8,910 nucleotides of DNA from a virus (Duplodnaviria > Heunggongvirae > Uroviricota > Caudoviricetes). Under the pieces are notes generated by a model. That model did not search any database and was not told the origin of the DNA. It saw only the letters and a program-made list of their open reading frames with translations. This document shows positions 134 to 8,910 of the stretch, piece by piece; within the stretch, counting starts at the first letter, position 1; every line of letters begins with the position of its first letter. Location: the IMG/VR virus record IMGVR_UViG_2778261536_000007; one strand, 5' to 3'. Both the position numbers and the translations under genes were made by a program.

Positions 134-481
134 TTACCCGCCGTGCGGCCTCAACACCCGAAAAGCTTCTTTAAATCTCTGTCGCAAATCATCACGCCAG
201 GCATCTTTATTCAGCCGTCCATATTTCTTTCCCATCCAGGCGTTATCACCAACACGCTCAAGATGCGGAGGGTCTAATACAACCATCGAAAAAGATGCGT
301 CTGCAAATGATAATGCACGAAAATCTGCGATAATGTCAGGGCTGATAATCAAGCGTCTCCCATTGCGTAATGTGTATCCTTCTTTTCTGATATCGCTGAA
401 TATCGCCCGTTTGTCAGACTTATCGAACCAGAACATGCGGCTGCCACAGCACATATCAAGAATGGTTGCCGGTGCACTCAC
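134..481 (-). CDS. SAM-dependent methyltransferase-like protein (115 aa), possibly an amino-methyltransferase fragment
   Basis: Translation carries a motif I-like ILDMCCGS, a DPPH tetrapeptide (motif IV of N6-adenine/N4-cytosine methyltransferases) and VLRPHGG. Ends at a double stop TAATGA with no room for a target-recognition domain. Probable GTG start at 481 overlapping the upstream stop (GTGA), AGGA about 9 nt upstream. Confidence 0.55.
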   Translation of the reverse strand: MSAPATILDMCCGSRMFWFDKSDKRAIFSDIRKEGYTLRNGRRLIISPDIIADFRALSFADASFSMVVLDPPHLERVGDNAWMGKKYGRLNKDAWRDDLRQRFKEAFRVLRPHGG

Positions 482-1906: not shown

Positions 1907-2408
1907 AATTCCATCCAGCTTTTTGTTGGTATTGCTGTCGATACGCAAGCTTGAAAGCAATTGCTTTTTCTATAAGTTCGTCAGTTTCACGATCCACTAC
2001 GGCAGGATCAGCAAAAAGCAGTCCGGACTCCACCACATCGCCATATTCTTTGTTTAACCCGGCGATCATGCACGTGATGCTTTTTCCGTCAGTAATTTCA
2101 CGATACAACCTGAAATCACTAATCCGGATAGCCTCCATAATCGCAGGCACTAGCGCCGTGAACTTTTCACGCTTATCCCTGGTGTCGATAGCCTTCCAGC
2201 GTTCGAATATCTTCACTCGATTAACACCAAGCGCTCGCTGATCAACCGCGCCACCTTCATCTGTGACACGCTGAACATCGATGTTCGGGCGCTCTTTCAA
2301 AGCCCAGAATGCTTCAGTGATTAATATCGTCGCCTGCTCCTGTGTCATTCCTGGTCGACATATCCAGGCATCCAGAGCCTCACGAGCCTGTTCAGGAGTG
2401 ATTTTCAT
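1887..2408 (-). CDS. Hypothetical protein (173 aa) in the cII position downstream of cro-like dicC
   Basis: ATG start at 2408. Overlaps the dicC stop by 17 nt and the replication gene start by about 20 nt. Function unknown; slot corresponds to cII/YdaT-like regulators. Confidence 0.5.
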   Translation of the reverse strand: MKITPEQAREALDAWICRPGMTQEQATILITEAFWALKERPNIDVQRVTDEGGAVDQRALGVNRVKIFERWKAIDTRDKREKFTALVPAIMEAIRISDFRLYREITDGKSITCMIAGLNKEYGDVVESGLLFADPAVVDRETDELIEKAIAFKLAYRQQYQQKAGWNYEPSFC

Positions 2409-2619
2409 TGTTCAACCGCCCCGCCCGCTTCGTCTTACGATATTCATCATAAACTTTGGGATCATACTGAAGCTCCCCGCCAGATGCCTCCTGTAGACGC
2501 ATCGCGCGACCTTCAGGAACCAGTATCCCCCAAGCAGCAACACTTGCCAGCCTCACTCCTGCGGCATTGGCAAGCTTTGTTTTGCTGCCAAAAAAAGTAA
2601 TTGCGTCAACTTTAAGCAT
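2392..2619 (-). CDS. dicC: Cro-like HTH regulator DicC
   Basis: Small HTH protein (GSKTKLANAAGVRLASVAAWG) divergent from the repressor gene. ATG at 2619 follows a strong SD (AGAGGGGG, 5 nt spacer). An in-frame TTG at 2622 would give 76 aa. Confidence 0.75.
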   Translation of the reverse strand: MLKVDAITFFGSKTKLANAAGVRLASVAAWGILVPEGRAMRLQEASGGELQYDPKVYDEYRKTKRAGRLNNENHS

Positions 2620-2631
2620 CAAAGCCCCCTC

Positions 2632-2651
2632 TTGTTAGACTTTTCTAACAT
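2632..2651. promoter_or_regulatory. Operator palindrome TTGTTAGA-N4-TCTAACA in the dicC/dicA divergent promoter region (OR-like)
   Basis: Near-perfect inverted repeat in the 80-bp intergenic region. Same motif recurs at 3142-3163. A degenerate copy may lie at about 2684-2698. Confidence 0.65.
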
Positions 2652-2699
2652 TATTGTGCGCGGGATACCTAAGTCAAGAAAAATTAGAATTACCTAACT

Positions 2700-3107
2700 A
2701 TGGATACAAGAACCCTGGGCCAGCGAGTTCTGGCGCGACGAAAAGAATTACGCTTAACACAACGAGAAGCCGCGCGCCTCGCTGGAGTTGCTCACGTCAC
2801 AATTTCACAATGGGAAAGAGACGAAACCCAGCCAGTCGGAAAACGATTGTTTGCTTTAGCGGATGCTCTGAAGTGCTCACCTACATGGCTAATGTTTGGT
2901 GACGAAGACAAGGCACCAGTGCCTGCACAAGAACTTCATGTGGAAACAGAGCTAACTCCCAACCACAAAGAATTGATCGAATTATTCGATGCTCTTCCAT
3001 CTTCCGAGCAGGAAGCCTTGCTGTCTGAAATGCGCGCAAGAGTAGAAAACTTCAACAAACTCTTCGAAGAAATGCTTAAAGCGCGTAAAAATAAATCAAT
3101 AAAATAA
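2700..3107 (+). CDS. dicA: XRE-family HTH repressor DicA (cI-like, 135 aa)
   Basis: Classic HTH_3 domain (LTQREAARLAGVAHVTISQWE). 135 aa matches DicA. No SD upstream of the ATG; a TAGAAT -10-like hexamer at 2685-2690 suggests a leaderless transcript. Confidence 0.85.
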   Translation: MDTRTLGQRVLARRKELRLTQREAARLAGVAHVTISQWERDETQPVGKRLFALADALKCSPTWLMFGDEDKAPVPAQELHVETELTPNHKELIELFDALPSSEQEALLSEMRARVENFNKLFEEMLKARKNKSIK

Positions 3108-3141
3108 CATTCTTTTCAAGTGATTAGTTGCGCCCACCCTT

Positions 3142-3163
3142 TTTGTTAGATCAATCTAACAAA
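3142..3163. promoter_or_regulatory. Operator palindrome TTTGTTAGA-tcaa-TCTAACAAA upstream of the dicB operon (OL-like)
   Basis: Perfect 9-bp inverted repeat with 4-bp spacer, same motif as at 2632-2651, lying between the dicA stop and ydfA. Confidence 0.7.
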
Positions 3164-3169
3164 AAACAC

Positions 3170-3198
3170 TTGCCTCTCATGTTAGGTTATTCTAAATT
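3170..3198 (+). promoter_or_regulatory. Candidate sigma70 promoter of the dicB operon (-35 TTGCCT, 17-bp spacer, -10 TAAATT)
   Basis: Hexamers with 17-bp spacing just downstream of the operator; a degenerate operator half-site pair (TGTTAG...CTAAA, 3180-3196) overlaps the -10. Confidence 0.4.
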
Positions 3199-3275
3199 AT
3201 TTTCCATCAAGACACCGCACGGTGTTCTCAGCAAACAGTTCCGCTACCCCGGCGTTAAGGGGAAATGAGGTCAGC

Positions 3276-3431
3276 ATGGATACTATCGATCTTGGCAACA
3301 GCGAATCTCTGGTATGTGGCGTGTTCCCCAACCAGGACGGTACGTTCACCGCGATGACGTATACCAAAAGCAAAACGTTTAAAACCGAAAATGGTGCCCG
3401 TCGCTGGCTGGAAAGAAACCCAGGTGAGTGA
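3276..3431 (+). CDS. ydfA: Small acidic protein YdfA (51 aa)
   Basis: ATG at 3276 preceded by GAGG (5 nt spacer); the track ORF from 3222 starts on GTG with no SD. Size and position match first gene of the Qin dicB operon. Confidence 0.7.
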   Translation: MDTIDLGNSESLVCGVFPNQDGTFTAMTYTKSKTFKTENGARRWLERNPGE

Positions 3432-3432
3432 T

Positions 3433-3561
3433 ATGGATTTCGACACAATCATGGAAAAGGCTTACGAAGAATACTTCGAAGGTCTTGCCGACGGCGAAGA
3501 AGCTCTCAGCTTCAACGAATTTAAACAGGCGCTTTCCAGTTCGGCAAAATCTAACGGCTGA
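3433..3561 (+). CDS. ydfB: Small protein YdfB (42 aa)
   Basis: Not in the ORF track (too short). ATG at 3433 follows AGGTGA with 5 nt spacer. Upstream stop overlaps (TGAtATG). Translation MDFDTIMEKAYEEYFEGLADGEEALSFNEFKQALSSSAKSNG. Confidence 0.6.
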   Translation: MDFDTIMEKAYEEYFEGLADGEEALSFNEFKQALSSSAKSNG

Positions 3562-3590
3562 TAAGCGAAACAGCACCGCGAGGAATCAGT

Positions 3591-3809
3591 ATGCAGAAAC
3601 GAGAACCCGTCATCATCGCGCCAGACTATACCGATGATGAACTTTATGAGTGGATGCGCCAGAAAATTAATGCAGCGCAGGATTTGAAATGGGCCAATGA
3701 AACCAGGGCTAAGCAGGCTGAAAATCTGTCCGCTCTGGAGCAGGATATCACCAATCTGGAAAAAGCAGCGGCATTAAGCATTGCCAGAATGATTACATAC
3801 CCGCGTTAG
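3591..3809 (+). CDS. ydfC: Small protein YdfC (72 aa)
   Basis: ATG preceded by GAGGA with 6 nt spacer. Size and position match ydfC of the Qin dicB operon. Confidence 0.7.
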   Translation: MQKREPVIIAPDYTDDELYEWMRQKINAAQDLKWANETRAKQAENLSALEQDITNLEKAAALSIARMITYPR

Positions 3810-4149
3810 TAGCTAATCAACAAAGCTAAGGTTAGTAATTAAGGAGTTCTCCACGGGTGAGGTGGAGTGCGTGCGCCGGACACGGGTGAGCATCCGGCAC
3901 TGACAGTTTACTGAAAGGATATTTCCCTGAAAAGTCAGACCATAACGCGAAAGCGCACGGCGAGGTAGCTGGTTCATAGATAGCCTGTCGTTAAATTTTC
4001 GTCGACCGTGCGCTTCCGGTTGTGGCAACCCGCGAAATGGCGCGGCGGTAAGTATGGCGGGGTTATTCCTTCCCCGTTGAGGACACCGGGTTGTCAGGTT
4101 GACCATACGCTTAAGTGACAACCCCGCTGCAACGCCCTCTGTTATCAAT

Positions 4150-4202
4150 TTTCTGGTGACGTTTGGCGGTATCAGTTTTACTCCGTGACTGCTCTGCCGC
4201 CC
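4150..4202 (+). ncRNA. dicF: DicF small regulatory RNA (53 nt), processed from the dicB operon transcript
   Basis: Sequence TTTCTGGTGACGTTTGGCGGTATCAGTTTTACTCCGTGACTGCTCTGCCGCCC matches DicF as I remember it. It sits between ydfC and dicB with no protein-like ORF and ends in a GC-rich stem plus T-run. Confidence 0.7.
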
Positions 4203-4207
4203 TTTTT
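4165..4207 (+). terminator. Rho-independent terminator-like 3' end of DicF (GGCGG...CCGCC stem followed by TTTTT)
   Basis: GGCGG (4165-4169) can pair with CCGCC (4197-4201), directly followed by TTTTT (4203-4207). Read-through is needed to express dicB downstream. Confidence 0.45.
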
Positions 4208-4376
4208 AAAGTGAATTTTGTGATGTGGTGAATGCGGCTGAGCGCACGCGGAACAGTTAAAACCAAAAACAGTGTTATGGGTGGATTCTCTGTATCCGGC
4301 GTTAATTGTTAACTGGTTAACGTCACCTGGAGGCACCAGGCACTGCATCACAAAATTCATTGTTGAGGACGCGATA

Positions 4377-4565
4377 ATGAAAACGTTATTACCAAACGTT
4401 AATACGTCTGAAGGTTGTTTTGAAATTGGTGTCACTATCAGTAACCCAGTATTTACTGAAGATGCCATTAACAAGAGAAAACAAGAACGGGAGCTATTAA
4501 ATAAAATATGCATTGTTTCAATGCTGGCTCGTTTACGTCTGATGCCAAAAGGATGTGCACAATGA
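4377..4565 (+). CDS. dicB: Cell-division inhibitor DicB (62 aa)
   Basis: ATG at 4377 preceded by GAGGA with 7 nt spacer; the longer track ORF from 4272 has no start signal. Translation MKTLLPNVNTSEGCFEIGV... and 62-aa length match DicB. Confidence 0.8.
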   Translation: MKTLLPNVNTSEGCFEIGVTISNPVFTEDAINKRKQERELLNKICIVSMLARLRLMPKGCAQ

Positions 4566-4753
4566 ATTCAGCATTTGTGCTTGTTCTGACAGTTTTTCTT
4601 GTTTCCGGAGAGCCAGTTGATATTGCAGTCAGTGTGCACAGGACAATGCAGGAGTGTATGACTGCAGCAACCGAACAGAAAATTCCCGGTAACTGTTACC
4701 CGGTCGATAAAGTTATTCACCAGGATAATATCGAAATCCCGGCAGGTCTTTAA
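4562..4753 (+). CDS. ydfD: Small protein YdfD (63 aa) with N-terminal hydrophobic segment, lysis-associated
   Basis: ATG at 4562 overlaps the dicB stop (ATGA), AAGGA 8 nt upstream. N-terminal hydrophobic stretch AFVLVLTVFLV followed by a Cys-containing soluble part. Confidence 0.75.
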   Translation: MNSAFVLVLTVFLVSGEPVDIAVSVHRTMQECMTAATEQKIPGNCYPVDKVIHQDNIEIPAGL

Positions 4754-4846
4754 AACAGTTCCGTAATAAATATCCGGTTTCATTCTTATATGCCAGCAAT
4801 GGCAGGGATTTGTTCATCCTTAAATCTGTCATGAGGTTAAAACAAA

Positions 4847-5104
4847 ATGAGTAAAGTCTTTATTTGCGCCGCTATTCCTGACGAACTGGCAACAAGGGAA
4901 GAAGGCGCTGTGGCTGTAGCCACAGCCATTGAAGCTGGCGACGAACGCCGTGCTCGAGCAAAATTTCACTGGCAGTTCCTGGAACATTATCCGGCTGCTC
5001 AGGACTGCGCTTATAAATTTATTGTCTGCGAGGATAAACCTGGCATACCCCGCCCTGCCCTCGATTCATGGGATGCTGAATATGCAGGAAAACCGCTGGG
5101 ATGA
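4847..5104 (+). CDS. Hypothetical small protein (85 aa) preceding the exonuclease gene
   Basis: ATG with GAGG about 10 nt upstream. Its 3' end overlaps the beginning of the long exonuclease ORF in another frame. Confidence 0.55.
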   Translation: MSKVFICAAIPDELATREEGAVAVATAIEAGDERRARAKFHWQFLEHYPAAQDCAYKFIVCEDKPGIPRPALDSWDAEYAGKPLG

Positions 5105-7271
5105 GGAGTCTGCTTCTTTTGTCCCGGTTGAGACTGAATCCGATCCGATGAACGTCACTTTTGACAAGCTGGCCCCTGAAGTACAGAACGCTGTCATGGT
5201 TAAGTTCGACACATGTGAAAACATCACCGTTGATATGGTTATTAGCGCACAGGAATTGTTGCAGGAAGACATGGCAACATTCGACGGACATATCGTTGAA
5301 GCGTTGATGAAAATGCCAGAAGTTAACGCCATGTATCCGGAGCTTAAGTTGCACGCCATTGGGTGGGTTAAGCATAAATGTATTCCTGGTGCTAAATGGC
5401 CCGAAATTCAGGCAGAGATGCGCATCTGGAAAAAACGTCGCGAAGGTGAACGCAAGGAAACCGGAAAATACACGTCTGTTGTTGATCTCGCCCGCGCCAG
5501 AACCAATCAACAGTACACTGAAAATTCAACAGGAAAAATCAGCCCGGTCATTGCTGCCATTCATCGCGAATACAAGCAGACATGGAAAACACTGGATGAC
5601 GAACTGGCCTACGCTCTCTGGCCTGGTGATGTGGATGCCGGAAACATTGACGGCAGCATCCATCGCTGGGCAAAAAAAGAAGTTATCGACAACGACCGCG
5701 AAGACTGGAAGCGTATCTCGGCATCAATGCGCAAACAGCCTGATGCCCTTCGCTACGACCGCCAGACTATTTTTGGCCTTGTCCGTGAGCGTCCGATCGA
5801 CATTCACAAAGATCCCATAGCACTGAACAAATATATCTGCGAATACCTGACGACAAAGGGCGTGTTTGAGAATGAAGAAACAGACCTGGGCACTGTTGAT
5901 GTTCTCCAGTCATCAGAAACACAAACTGATGCAGTGGAAACTGAGGTATCTGATATCCCAAAAAATGAAACCGCGCCGGAAGCTGAACCATCTGTAGAGC
6001 GTGAGGGGCCGTTCTATTTCCTCTTCGCAGATAAGGACGGAGAAAAATACGGTCGCGCAAACAAACTTTCTGGTCTGGATAAGGCACTGGCTGCTGGCGC
6101 CACTGAAATCACAAAAGAAGAATATTTTGCCCGAAAAAATGGCACATACACGGGCTTACCGCAAAATGTAGATACCGCTGAAGATTCAGAACAACCAGAG
6201 CCGATAAAAGTTACCGCTGACGAAGTAAACAAAATTATGCAGGCAGCCAATATCAGCCAGCCTGACGCCGATAAGTTGCTTGCTGCATCACGTGGTGAAT
6301 TTGTTGAAGGGATTAGTGACCCGAATGATCCGAAATGGGTTAAGGGGATCCAGACCCGCGATTCTGTGAACCAGAACCAGCATGAATCGGAACGGAACTA
6401 CCAAAAAGCGGAACAAAACAGCACAAATGCGTTACAAAACGAGCCAGAAACGAAACAGCCTGAACCAGTGGCGCAACTGGAAGTGGAAAAAGTCTGCACC
6501 GCCTGCGGTCAGACCGGCGGCGGCAACTGCCCTGATTGTGGCGCGGTGATGGGCGACGCAACATACCAGGAAACATTCGATGAAGAGTATCAGGTTGAAG
6601 TTCAGGAAGATGATCTGGAGGAAATGGAAGGCGCTGAACATCCACACAAGGAGAACACTGGCGGCAATCAGCATCACAATAGCGATAATGAAACTGGCGA
6701 GACGGCAGATCACTCAATTAAGGTGAACGGTCATCACGAAATCACATCCACCAGCAGGACGTGTGACCATCTAATGATCGACCTTGAAACCATGGGAAAA
6801 AATCCTGATGCCCCGATCATCTCAATAGGTGCAATATTTTTCGATCTGGAAACTGCTGGCGGAGTCATTGATCGGGACACCATTAAATGGTGGCTTAAGC
6901 AATCACGCGAAGCGCAATCTGCCATTATGACCGATGAAATCCCGTTAGATGATGCACTGTTACAATTGCGGGAATTTATCGACGAAAACTCCGGTGAATT
7001 TTTTGTTCAGGTTTGGGGAAATGGAGCCAACTTCGACAACACGATTTTGCGCCGTTCATACGAACGGCAGGGGATCCCCTGCCCGTGGCGTTACTACAAC
7101 GATCGCGATGTACGCACAATCGTTGAGCTGGGGAAAGCCATAGACTTCGATGCCAGAACGGCTATTCCATTCGAAGGTGAGCGCCATAATGCACTTGATG
7201 ACGCCCGTTACCAGGCAAAATACGTTTCAGTTATCTGGCAAAAACTGATCCCGAGTCAGGCTGATTCTTAA
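5082..7271 (+). CDS. RecE-like protein (annotated in databases as exodeoxyribonuclease VIII) with C-terminal DEDDh (DnaQ/RNase T-like) 3'-5' exonuclease domain
   Basis: Track ORF 4929-7271 starts on TTG inside the upstream gene; first in-frame ATGs are 5073 and 5082. Middle segment DKLLAASRGEFVEGISDPNDPKWVKGIQTRD resembles E. coli RecE as I remember it. C-terminal about 170 aa carry DEDDh motifs: DLETMG, WGNGANFDN, HNALDDARYQ. Confidence 0.75.
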   Translation: MQENRWDEESASFVPVETESDPMNVTFDKLAPEVQNAVMVKFDTCENITVDMVISAQELLQEDMATFDGHIVEALMKMPEVNAMYPELKLHAIGWVKHKCIPGAKWPEIQAEMRIWKKRREGERKETGKYTSVVDLARARTNQQYTENSTGKISPVIAAIHREYKQTWKTLDDELAYALWPGDVDAGNIDGSIHRWAKKEVIDNDREDWKRISASMRKQPDALRYDRQTIFGLVRERPIDIHKDPIALNKYICEYLTTKGVFENEETDLGTVDVLQSSETQTDAVETEVSDIPKNETAPEAEPSVEREGPFYFLFADKDGEKYGRANKLSGLDKALAAGATEITKEEYFARKNGTYTGLPQNVDTAEDSEQPEPIKVTADEVNKIMQAANISQPDADKLLAASRGEFVEGISDPNDPKWVKGIQTRDSVNQNQHESERNYQKAEQNSTNALQNEPETKQPEPVAQLEVEKVCTACGQTGGGNCPDCGAVMGDATYQETFDEEYQVEVQEDDLEEMEGAEHPHKENTGGNQHHNSDNETGETADHSIKVNGHHEITSTSRTCDHLMIDLETMGKNPDAPIISIGAIFFDLETAGGVIDRDTIKWWLKQSREAQSAIMTDEIPLDDALLQLREFIDENSGEFFVQVWGNGANFDNTILRRSYERQGIPCPWRYYNDRDVRTIVELGKAIDFDARTAIPFEGERHNALDDARYQAKYVSVIWQKLIPSQADS

Positions 7272-7343: not shown

Positions 7344-7595
7344 ATGAGCGAAGTAATCATGATTGTCTCTCCCGGCAAATGGGTATCCGAAGAGCAGTTA
7401 ATTGCGCTGAAAGGAATAAAAAAAGGTACGTTAAAAAAGGCCCGGGAAAAATCGTTTATGGAAGGAAGGGAATATAAGCATGTCGCTCATGACGGTATGC
7501 CATGGGATAACAGCCCATGCTTTTACAACCTGGAAGAAATTGATCGCTGGATTGAGCGCCAGGCATCAGCGAGACCAAGACGTCATCTTACTTGA
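7344..7595 (+). CDS. xis: Excisionase (lambda Xis-like)
   Basis: 83-aa protein directly upstream of the integrase; the motif EGREYKH resembles the lambda Xis DNA-binding region. Confidence 0.7.
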   Translation: MSEVIMIVSPGKWVSEEQLIALKGIKKGTLKKAREKSFMEGREYKHVAHDGMPWDNSPCFYNLEEIDRWIERQASARPRRHLT

Positions 7596-7629: not shown

Positions 7630-8910
7630 ATGAAATATCCGACAGGCGTGGAAAACCATGGAGGGAAATTACGTATCTGGTTTGTTTATAAAGGCGTAAG
7701 AGTCAGGGAAAATCTGGGGGTTCCTGACACAGCAAAAAACAGGCGCGTTGCAGGTGAACTACGCGCCTCTGTTTGTTACGCAATAAAAACTGGTGTTTTC
7801 GACTATGCAAAACAGTTTCCCTCCTCACGCAATCTGGAAAAATTTGGTGAGGCCCGACAAGATTTAACCATAAAAGAACTGGCTGAAAAATTTCTGGCAC
7901 TGAAAGAAACTGAAGTCGCAAAAACATCACTCAACACATACCGTGCCGTCATCAAAAATATCCTGAGCATAATCGGTGAAAAAAATCTTGCCTCATCGAT
8001 TAATAAAGAAAAATTACTGGAGGTTCGTAAAGAGCTACTGACTGGATACCAGATCCCCAAAAGTAACTATATTGTTACACAACCAGGGAGATCGGCTGTA
8101 ACTGTAAATAATTACATGACAAATCTTAACGCCGTGTTCCAGTTTGGTGTTGATAACGGTTACTTGGCAGATAACCCGTTTAAGGGGATCTCGCCATTAA
8201 AGGAATCAAGAACCATTCCGGATCCTCTTTCGCGGGAGGAATTCATCCGTCTTATCGATGCGTGCAGAAATCAGCAAGCCAAAAATTTATGGTGTGTTTC
8301 TGTTTATACTGGCGTTCGCCCTGGTGAGCTGTGTGCACTTGGATGGGAGGACATAGATCTGAAAAATGGAACAATGATGATCAGGAGAAATTTAGCAAAA
8401 GACCGTTTCACGGTACCAAAAACACAGGCGGGAACCAATCGGGTCATTCATCTTATTAAGCCAGCAATCGACGCTCTCCGGAGTCAGATGACATTAACGA
8501 GACTGAGCAAAGAGCATATCATTGATGTTCACCTCAGAGAGTATGGCAGAACAGAAAAACAAAAATGCACCTTTGTTTTTCAACCTGAAGTGTCAGCGAG
8601 AGTAAAAAATTATGGTGACCATTTTACCGTTGACTCAATAAGGCAGATGTGGGACGCAGCGATAAAACGTGCCGGACTCCGCCATCGAAAATCATATCAG
8701 TCGAGACATACTTATGCCTGCTGGTCGCTGACAGCTGGTGCTAACCCGGCATTTATAGCAAACCAGATGGGCCATGCAGATGCGCAAATGGTATTTCAGG
8801 TATACGGAAAATGGATGTCTGAAAACAATAATGCACAGGTAGCTTTGTTAAATACACAGTTAAGCGAGTTTGTCCCAACCATGCCCCATAACGAAGCAAT
8901 GAAAAATTAA
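7630..8910 (+). CDS. int: Phage tyrosine integrase (lambda Int family)
   Basis: N-terminal MKYPTGVE... arm-binding-like start and C-terminal catalytic region (VYTGVRPGEL, SRHTYA, GHADAQMVFQVYGKW with catalytic Tyr). Alternative upstream ATG at 7615. Stop codon is the last three bases of the window. Confidence 0.85.
   Translation: MKYPTGVENHGGKLRIWFVYKGVRVRENLGVPDTAKNRRVAGELRASVCYAIKTGVFDYAKQFPSSRNLEKFGEARQDLTIKELAEKFLALKETEVAKTSLNTYRAVIKNILSIIGEKNLASSINKEKLLEVRKELLTGYQIPKSNYIVTQPGRSAVTVNNYMTNLNAVFQFGVDNGYLADNPFKGISPLKESRTIPDPLSREEFIRLIDACRNQQAKNLWCVSVYTGVRPGELCALGWEDIDLKNGTMMIRRNLAKDRFTVPKTQAGTNRVIHLIKPAIDALRSQMTLTRLSKEHIIDVHLREYGRTEKQKCTFVFQPEVSARVKNYGDHFTVDSIRQMWDAAIKRAGLRHRKSYQSRHTYACWSLTAGANPAFIANQMGHADAQMVFQVYGKWMSENNNAQVALLNTQLSEFVPTMPHNEAMKN

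Follow-up and report, generated by a model that had tools for sequence, protein, structure and literature searches.

What is encoded at the head of the early-left operon of a lambdoid prophage, and what might it do there? In lambda, this position in the PL operon is taken by ral, sieB, kil, and cIII, and the same question can be asked of the DNA considered here, a window of 8910 bases that spans, in a Qin-type lambdoid prophage of Escherichia coli, the region of the immunity and early-left genes. Within it, three small open reading frames (ORFs) of 51, 42, and 72 amino acids follow one another on the same strand, from ATG 3276 to TGA 3431, from ATG 3433 to TGA 3561, and from ATG 3591 to TAG 3809, just as described in an earlier note on this DNA, which placed them in the slot of host-takeover, superinfection-exclusion, and anti-defence genes. 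The names of these genes are ydfA, ydfB, and ydfC, and they lie nearest the promoter in the dicBF operon (ydfABC-dicF-dicB-ydfD) of a Qin-type prophage beside rspB. The best explanation overall joins this identity to the regulatory logic of the operon and to a role of the products as small binding proteins, and we put its probability at roughly 85%.

The gene map used here is the RefSeq annotation of a 100% identical genome, converted to window coordinates, and exactly the three intervals given above are named ydfA, ydfB, and ydfC in it. RefSeq thus already annotates ydfB, the 42-residue gene that had been flagged as easily missed. Residues identical to the K-12 proteins number 48 of 51 for YdfA, 40 of 42 for YdfB, and 71 of 72 for YdfC. 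YdfA belongs to the DUF1391/YdaF family, with a PF07151 score of 95.6 bits against a cut-off of 27.3 over profile positions 1–47 of 48, and all 20 aligned members of the YdfA family match this profile; YdfB falls into phrog_2061 (E = 3.8e-27) and YdfC into phrog_1744 (E = 3.3e-39).

The surroundings agree with these names. Searches of Rfam, Pfam, and NCBIfam found DicA, DicC, DicF, DicB, and YdfD around the three genes in canonical order. A DicA-family repressor and DicC lie directly upstream and are divergent, scoring 224.7 and 165.7 bits against NCBIfam cut-offs of 101 bits (NF007257, DicA) and 130 bits (NF007282, DicC). Downstream of ydfC, on one strand, come DicF, dicB, and ydfD, characterised host-directed effectors (4151–4753) that the earlier note had left out. 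We compared 263 related loci, taken from phage records, viral contigs, and species-representative genomes; 133 of them, the largest group, have the order dicA-ydfA-ydfB-ydfC-dicF-dicB-ydfD. Both the identity of the ORFs and their dicBF-type expression are regarded as close to certain. The operon and its regulators are laid out as follows.

3276–3431, plus strand: ydfA, 51 amino acids (PF07151; phrog_751; RefSeq ydfA)
3433–3561, plus strand: ydfB, 42 amino acids (RefSeq ydfB; phrog_2061)
3591–3809, plus strand: ydfC, 72 amino acids (RefSeq ydfC; phrog_1744)
3810–4150, plus strand: untranslated spacer of the polycistronic mRNA, part of the DicF precursor and in K-12 the place where RNase III and RNase E process it, 99% identical to K-12
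4151–4202, plus strand: DicF small RNA (sRNA) with its intrinsic terminator (Rfam RF00039, 76.7 bits against a gathering threshold of 48, full length)
4377–4565, plus strand: dicB, cell-division inhibitor (PF05358, 136.8 bits; NF049927; 62 of 62 residues identical to K-12)
4562–4753, plus strand: ydfD, lysis protein, DUF1482 (PF07358, 91.1 bits; 63 of 63 residues identical to K-12; named in RefSeq)
2700–3107, plus strand: dicA-family repressor gene, 135 amino acids (NF007257; HTH_3)
2392–2619, minus strand: dicC, Cro-like regulator divergent from dicA (NF007282; Pfam P22_Cro; RefSeq coding sequence)

The arrangement is extremely widespread. A 2.4-kb segment around the ORFs recurs with 100% identity in many complete E. 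coli genomes. DNA similar to window positions 2380–4800 (the dicBF segment with ydfABC) is present in 4757 of 5426 such genomes, frequently in multiple copies.

Coding capacity of the three ORFs

The first question to ask of such short ORFs is whether they are genes at all. They could be chance open frames in a transcribed leader, an idea that draws on their very small size and on the lack of any protein-level evidence in the searchable literature. Several properties of the DNA speak against it. An uninterrupted ORF of unchanged length is present in 229 of 242 loci for ydfA, 202 of 226 for ydfB, and 200 of 215 for ydfC. Ratios of non-synonymous to synonymous substitution rates (dN/dS, summed over pairwise comparisons of closely related, non-independent prophage copies) are 0.16, 0.26, and 0.40 for ydfA, ydfB, and ydfC in the annotated frame and 0.7–5 in the two alternative frames; as a reference, the experimentally characterised genes for DicB and YdfD give 0.42 and 0.32. 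Distinct single-base codon variants, counted site by site, show an excess of synonymous changes that is significant in the annotated frame only (P = 9e-14 for ydfA, 2e-3 for ydfB, and 8e-4 for ydfC). Furthermore, homologues with the same start methionines occur in phages or prophages of Serratia, Pantoea, Salicola, Cronobacter, Citrobacter, and Shigella, and curated Pfam and PHROG families exist. Taken with the frame-specific synonymous excess, intactness of the ORFs in about 90% or more of the loci shows ydfA, ydfB, and ydfC, as judged from the sequences, to be genuine coding genes under purifying selection, and the intactness, dN/dS, and synonymous-excess results effectively refute the chance-frame explanation.

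The start of ydfA requires a comment. In most E. coli alleles the frame stays open upstream of this start, and many annotation pipelines call an extended protein of 77–83 amino acids. The 51-residue protein is the conserved form, since the extension varies in length and is missing from at least 14 loci and from all distant homologues.

The spacing of the genes is also constant. The junction between ydfA and ydfB (TGAtATG) had been described as an overlap of stop and start; it is a gap of one base, with the stop at 3429–3431 and the start at 3433. The tight coupling that the description implied is upheld by the spacing itself, which is invariant in 219 of 219 loci, and YdfA and YdfB would be produced in a coupled fashion. 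The ydfB-ydfC spacer is likewise fixed, at 29 nucleotides (nt) in 195 of 195 loci. Good Shine–Dalgarno sequences, claimed for all three genes, are present 5 nt upstream of ydfA (GAGG) and 6 nt upstream of ydfC (GAGGA); that of ydfB (GGTGAG) is poorer, with a predicted duplex of −3.9 kcal/mol, the weakest ribosome-binding site of the three.

Two of the proteins had been called acidic, and in fact all three are, with isoelectric points (pI) of 5.2 (YdfA), 4.05 (YdfB), and 5.0 (YdfC); YdfB alone is strongly so (net charge −7.5). Hydrophobic segments are absent from all of them. These properties are those expected of three small, soluble, acidic cytoplasmic proteins that lack enzyme-like features.

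Transcription, RNA processing, and mosaic context

Much of what is understood about expression of these genes comes from K-12. There, DicA represses dicBp, the promoter that lies upstream of ydfA: deletion of dicA raises its activity 22-fold (Ragunathan et al. 2023, PMC10448788). The same study likens dicBp to PL, describes its derepression by the antirepressor Rem, stochastically, and by stress, and detects ydfA mRNA in stationary phase within ydfABC-dicF and ydfABC-dicFB-ydfD transcripts (PMC10448788). Transcription of ydfABC as one polycistronic mRNA from a DicA-repressed promoter has been shown for K-12, and by analogy the same would apply in the window. The earlier placing of the ORFs as the first genes behind a repressor-controlled promoter is borne out here: the putative promoter is PL-like, the repressor is of the DicA family, and operator-like palindromes flank the putative −35 element.

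2633–2650, dicC/dicA intergenic region: operator-like palindrome TGTTAGA-N4-TCTAACA, from a repeat and inverted-repeat search
3144–3161, with a degenerate copy at 3180–3197, upstream of ydfA: operator-like repeats around the putative −35 and −10 elements, from a repeat search
3144–3198, plus strand: putative dicBp (PL analogue), with −35 TTGCCT (3170–3175) and −10 TAAATT (3193–3198) read from the sequence

The two hexamers of the putative dicBp match the consensus at 8 of 12 positions, under the scan threshold, and a consensus promoter scan of the window did not call the promoter. It was placed by eye and by alignment with the K-12 promoter region, and its position is to be read as probable. 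The palindrome is a candidate DicA operator, by analogy with K-12 (PMC10448788); it occurs in three copies and is specific to this DicA immunity type.

Two further features of lambdoid early operons were sought and rejected. A lambda N-type antiterminator was considered for YdfA, whose N-terminus, MDTIDLGNSESL, has no arginines. As for a nut site, the leader folds no more stably than shuffled sequences (z = +0.46) and has no match in Rfam.

The repressor itself is of a different immunity type from that of K-12, with 41 of 135 positions identical in an ungapped comparison of the two DicA proteins. Identity to K-12 resumes just downstream of the putative −10 element, and a mosaic joint therefore separates the immunity module from the ydfABC cassette. 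The two recombine independently, and across the related loci the cassette follows repressors that are 20–100% identical to the window DicA.

Exchange extends to the individual genes. Variant loci lack ydfC, lack both ydfA and ydfB, or carry ydfA alone. A DUF1391 gene stands by itself as the first gene after the repressor in Serratia phage OS31. A YdfB-like ORF that is unannotated (78% identity) lies directly downstream of the repressor in Cronobacter phage phiES15 (3501–3623 of the extracted locus), and another, also unannotated, holds the same first position in a Citrobacter Rac-like prophage, with sieB, kilR, ydaE, and recE after it. In Shigella phage SfIV, an unannotated YdfC-like ORF (∼40% identity) comes directly after the repressor (3501–3698 of the extracted locus). 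The complete ydfABC cassette is carried by isolated temperate phages such as Tritos. Because each gene stands alone behind repressors, and the gene order varies, ydfA, ydfB, and ydfC are separable accessory modules of lambdoid early-left operons rather than an obligate trio. As a side observation, small early genes such as the ORFs of SfIV and phiES15 are routinely missed in phage records.

These contexts bear on a second explanation, in which the ORFs act mainly in cis: their translation would shield the DicF/dicB precursor from Rho termination or RNase, and the peptides would be dispensable. The three genes do form the 5′ 600 nt of the DicF precursor. In K-12, RNase E and RNase III process the ydfABC transcripts to yield DicF, and this processing influences the stability of the ydfA part (PMC10448788); DicF is an sRNA derived from the 3′ untranslated region of ydfC (PMC9438474). 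A purely cis role is improbable, because selection acts at the amino-acid level in every ORF and each gene is also found where there is no downstream DicF (Rac-type loci, OS31, SfIV, and phiES15); conserved protein motifs also persist across genera. In the window, the 341 nt that separate ydfC from DicF share 99% identity with K-12 and, together with DicF, fold more stably than shuffled sequences (z = −3.2). This spacer additionally contains an antisense ORF of 111 amino acids (3813–4148), which is most likely spurious.

Predicted structures and possible functions

If the peptides matter, their structures may give clues to how they act. Structure prediction had been suggested as a check in the earlier note, and folds could be modelled for YdfA and YdfC; both are small folds in which catalytic features are absent, none was diagnostic, and no function could be assigned from them. 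The AlphaFold2 model of YdfA is a beta-beta-beta-alpha mini-domain, a three-stranded sheet with a C-terminal helix (predicted local distance difference test score, pLDDT, 77.7). A Foldseek search with it returned nothing significant, the weak matches including the N-terminal domain of lambda Int and phage HNH nucleases.

This topology allows a third explanation, in which YdfA, as a minimal domain of the AP2/ERF or integrase-arm type, would bind nucleic acid and regulate phage development, perhaps with YdfB. The predicted topology equals that of AP2/ERF and integrase arm-binding domains, with a local superposition of 1.2–1.5 Å over 35 residues; the two weak Foldseek matches just named fit the idea, and hhalign sets the motifs GV..G.F.A and TF.T..A in one register (pairwise P = 0.0019). 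The hhalign probability is 14%, however, against a small AP2 alignment. Neither AP2 nor Arm-DNA-bind in Pfam is matched even at E = 10, and YdfA is not similar to the Int N-terminus of this same prophage. It is also acidic and is without the Arg and Trp residues used by AP2 domains for DNA contact. With scores that are not significant, no match to PF00847, and DNA-contact residues that are not conserved, membership of the AP2/ERF family was rejected, leaving a similarity of topology alone; this identification of YdfA is considered very unlikely.

A separate local similarity deserves mention. Residues 21–39 of YdfA (window 3336–3392), DGTFTAMTYTKSKTFKTEN, resemble residues 69–87, EGTETALTYYKSGTFATEA, of the head-decoration protein SHP of phage 21, with 12 of 19 identical and E-values of 0.014–0.03 in a PDB profile search. 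This SHP-like stretch probably explains why ydfA is mis-annotated as ‘head-DNA stabilization protein D’ in several phage records (ON470580 and others).

YdfB has a conserved core, MEKAYEEYFxxLAEGEEALSFxEFxxAL, that is invariant in the alignment through EF. The family profile picks up multi-EF-hand proteins at E-values of about 1e-3, and residues 20–35 of YdfB (DGEEALSFNEFKQALS) look like the latter half of an EF-hand loop with its exiting helix. This covers half of the motif, and the PDB E-values are 0.05 or higher. A calcium-binding EF-hand was rejected. Its 12-residue loop would require Asp, Asp/Asn, Gly, and Glu at positions 1, 3, 6, and 12, and YdfB has Leu, Asp/Glu, Glu, and Glu there. 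Remote homologues among 1.84 billion representative sequences were mostly peptides of 30–90 amino acids, with no informative fusions, and the long matches could be set aside as Calx-beta or EF-hand repeat proteins found through a low-complexity acidic motif.

In the model of YdfC, a short strand at the N-terminus leads into a single long helix (residues 15–69; pLDDT 86.6). The N-terminal motif of the protein, MQK.EPVIIAP.YTDDE.YEWM, is conserved and its helical half is variable, which together with the model suggests an oligomerising helix that may display a binding motif. A PDB profile search with YdfC returned generic coiled coils as marginal local matches, and marginal local matches were all that such searches gave for YdfA and YdfB. 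In Pfam, NCBIfam, and PHROGs the three products fall only into families of unknown function.

Papers up to 2026 likewise assign the three genes no function. The ydfABC products were described as ‘small proteins of unknown function’ by Balasubramanian et al. in 2016 (PMC5069750). Induction of the dicBF operon from Plac is toxic through dicF and dicB, and when these two are deleted and ydfABC and ydfD kept, cells show normal growth, viability, and morphology upon induction (PMC5069750). DicB is required for the ∼100-fold protection that the operon confers against lambda and other ManYZ-dependent phages (Ragunathan and Vanderpool 2019, PMC6832061). A 2024 survey of the ‘y-ome’ lists ydfA, ydfB, and ydfC as uncharacterised (PMC11551758), as does a 2024 preprint on DicC, and a directed-evolution preprint of 2025–26 used YdfC as a peptide of no known function.

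The slot in which the earlier note placed the genes suggests a role in host takeover, superinfection exclusion, or anti-defence; an example would be an acidic protein that blocks restriction or abortive infection. Such a role for one or more of YdfA, YdfB, and YdfC is in keeping with their position as the first genes of a PL-like early operon, with the proximity of YdfB-like and DUF1391 genes to sieB and kilR in Rac-like prophages, with the high acidity of YdfB, and with the maintenance of mosaic accessory modules under purifying selection in many prophages. Similarity to known effectors was not found in Pfam, NCBIfam, PHROGs, PADLOC, or PDB profiles; in PADLOC-DB, which holds defence rather than anti-defence proteins, none of the three had a match at E-values up to 1. 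Moreover, the harmless induction of the K-12 operon devoid of dicF and dicB reveals no overt takeover or toxicity, resistance to lambda and ManYZ-dependent phages is the work of DicB, and 42 amino acids is very short for a DNA mimic. No homology, PADLOC, or structural match pointed to such a function, and we consider an effector role of this kind somewhat unlikely. The K-12 data oppose toxicity and a lambda-exclusion role for ydfABC; they bear on no other defence systems.

A broader view, of which the anti-defence or exclusion idea is a subset, is that the ydfABC products bind or modulate a factor of the host or of a competing phage. We put this forward tentatively, at less than even odds, as the functional part of the preferred explanation. 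Each ydf gene would belong to an accessory repertoire that lambdoid phages exchange, module by module and independently, at the start of the early-left operon. The products would be the first proteins out after derepression, and as small soluble binders they would most likely act by stoichiometric binding to a host or phage macromolecule at this early stage. The outcome would be a non-essential, non-toxic modulation, comparable to the action of lambda's small PL-operon accessory genes. A more specific version combines YdfA as a stripped-down AP2/integrase-arm domain, a half-EF-hand-like YdfB in fixed ratio to it, and a coiled-coil YdfC into an early modulator set that would bind nucleic acid or a protein of host defence or regulation. 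This version is quite unlikely; if true, three long-standing y-genes, and with them a module present in most E. coli genomes, would acquire a function.

Some points weigh against the explanation that we favour as a whole. The three proteins are without a known binding partner or phenotype, and no tagging, mass spectrometry, or ribosome-profiling evidence of them was found in the searchable literature. The non-independence of the prophage copies affects the dN/dS values, although the frame specificity is clear nonetheless. Promoter and operators in the window are read from sequence and from K-12, and its DicA is of a different immunity type. Finally, an ASKA over-expression screen placed ydfA and ydfB among hundreds of candidates for oxidant tolerance, which we consider weak.

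The value of this locus as a discovery is small, as the genes, operon, promoter, and repressor were known and named before, in EcoCyc, RefSeq, and papers from 1986 to 2024. The extremely widespread ydfA, ydfB, and ydfC are still part of the E. coli ‘y-ome’ (PMC11551758). What is added here is frame-specific purifying selection on each ORF at a level comparable to DicB and YdfD, an invariant ydfA-ydfB junction, and the recurrence of separable modules right behind many immunity repressors, including those of viable temperate phages. This recurrence makes a phage-side function likelier than a purely host-domesticated one. Once the targets of the three products are found, the functions encoded in one of the best-studied cryptic-prophage operons would be fully mapped.

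The rest of the window and comparison with known systems

The remaining features of the window complete the prophage segment from an insertion-sequence terminus to the integrase, the end of which adjoins the host gene rspB in the RefSeq map.

1–123: IS1A terminus, placed by offset from the annotated identical genome; it abuts the methyltransferase gene
134–481, minus strand: methyltransferase (RefSeq map)
Between the methyltransferase gene and dicC, minus strand: genes for a DUF977 protein, a replication-type protein, and a YdaT-like protein (RefSeq map)
4847–7271, plus strand: 3′-5′ exonuclease gene (RecE/exonuclease VIII-like), frameshifted (RefSeq map)
7344–7595, plus strand: excisionase (RefSeq map)
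7630–8910, plus strand: integrase (RefSeq map)

The exonuclease gene is a pseudogene. Compared with the intact gene of phage Tritos, it has a deletion of 2 bp (AT) near 5079–5080 that splits it into ORFs of 85 and 780 amino acids, and RefSeq likewise flags a frameshift. A second difference from Tritos, of about 45 nt and in frame, lies near 6841–6853.

The closest known system is the Qin prophage of K-12, with ydfA (b1571), ydfB (b1572), and ydfC (b1573). The order of the genes, the spacers of 1 and 29 nt, and the downstream DicF-dicB-ydfD segment are equal in the two. The window prophage differs in its DicA/DicC immunity type and operators, and where K-12 Qin has IS2-disrupted remnants it retains complete int and xis genes and an exonuclease gene of full length, though frameshifted.

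Another point of comparison is provided by the Rac prophage, in which ydaF, a gene of the same DUF1391 family (∼88% identical), also lies just downstream of the prophage repressor gene, racR. In contrast to the window, where ydfB, ydfC, and DicF follow, the DUF1391 gene of Rac is followed by sieB and kilR. Upstream of ydaF is ydaG (3856–3990 of the extracted locus), encoding a 44-residue protein that is unrelated to YdfB. As YdaG precedes ydaF in Rac-type prophages, DUF1391 genes have different tiny partners in different prophages.

The comparison can be widened to the PL accessory genes of lambda and P22 (ral, sieB/esc, kil, cIII, and ea). No sequence or fold similarity to ydfABC was detected, and the dicBF operon is not headed by an N-like antiterminator. 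The two sets nonetheless take up the same slot, in the early-left operon directly under the immunity repressor, and both are made up of small, non-essential, mosaic genes.

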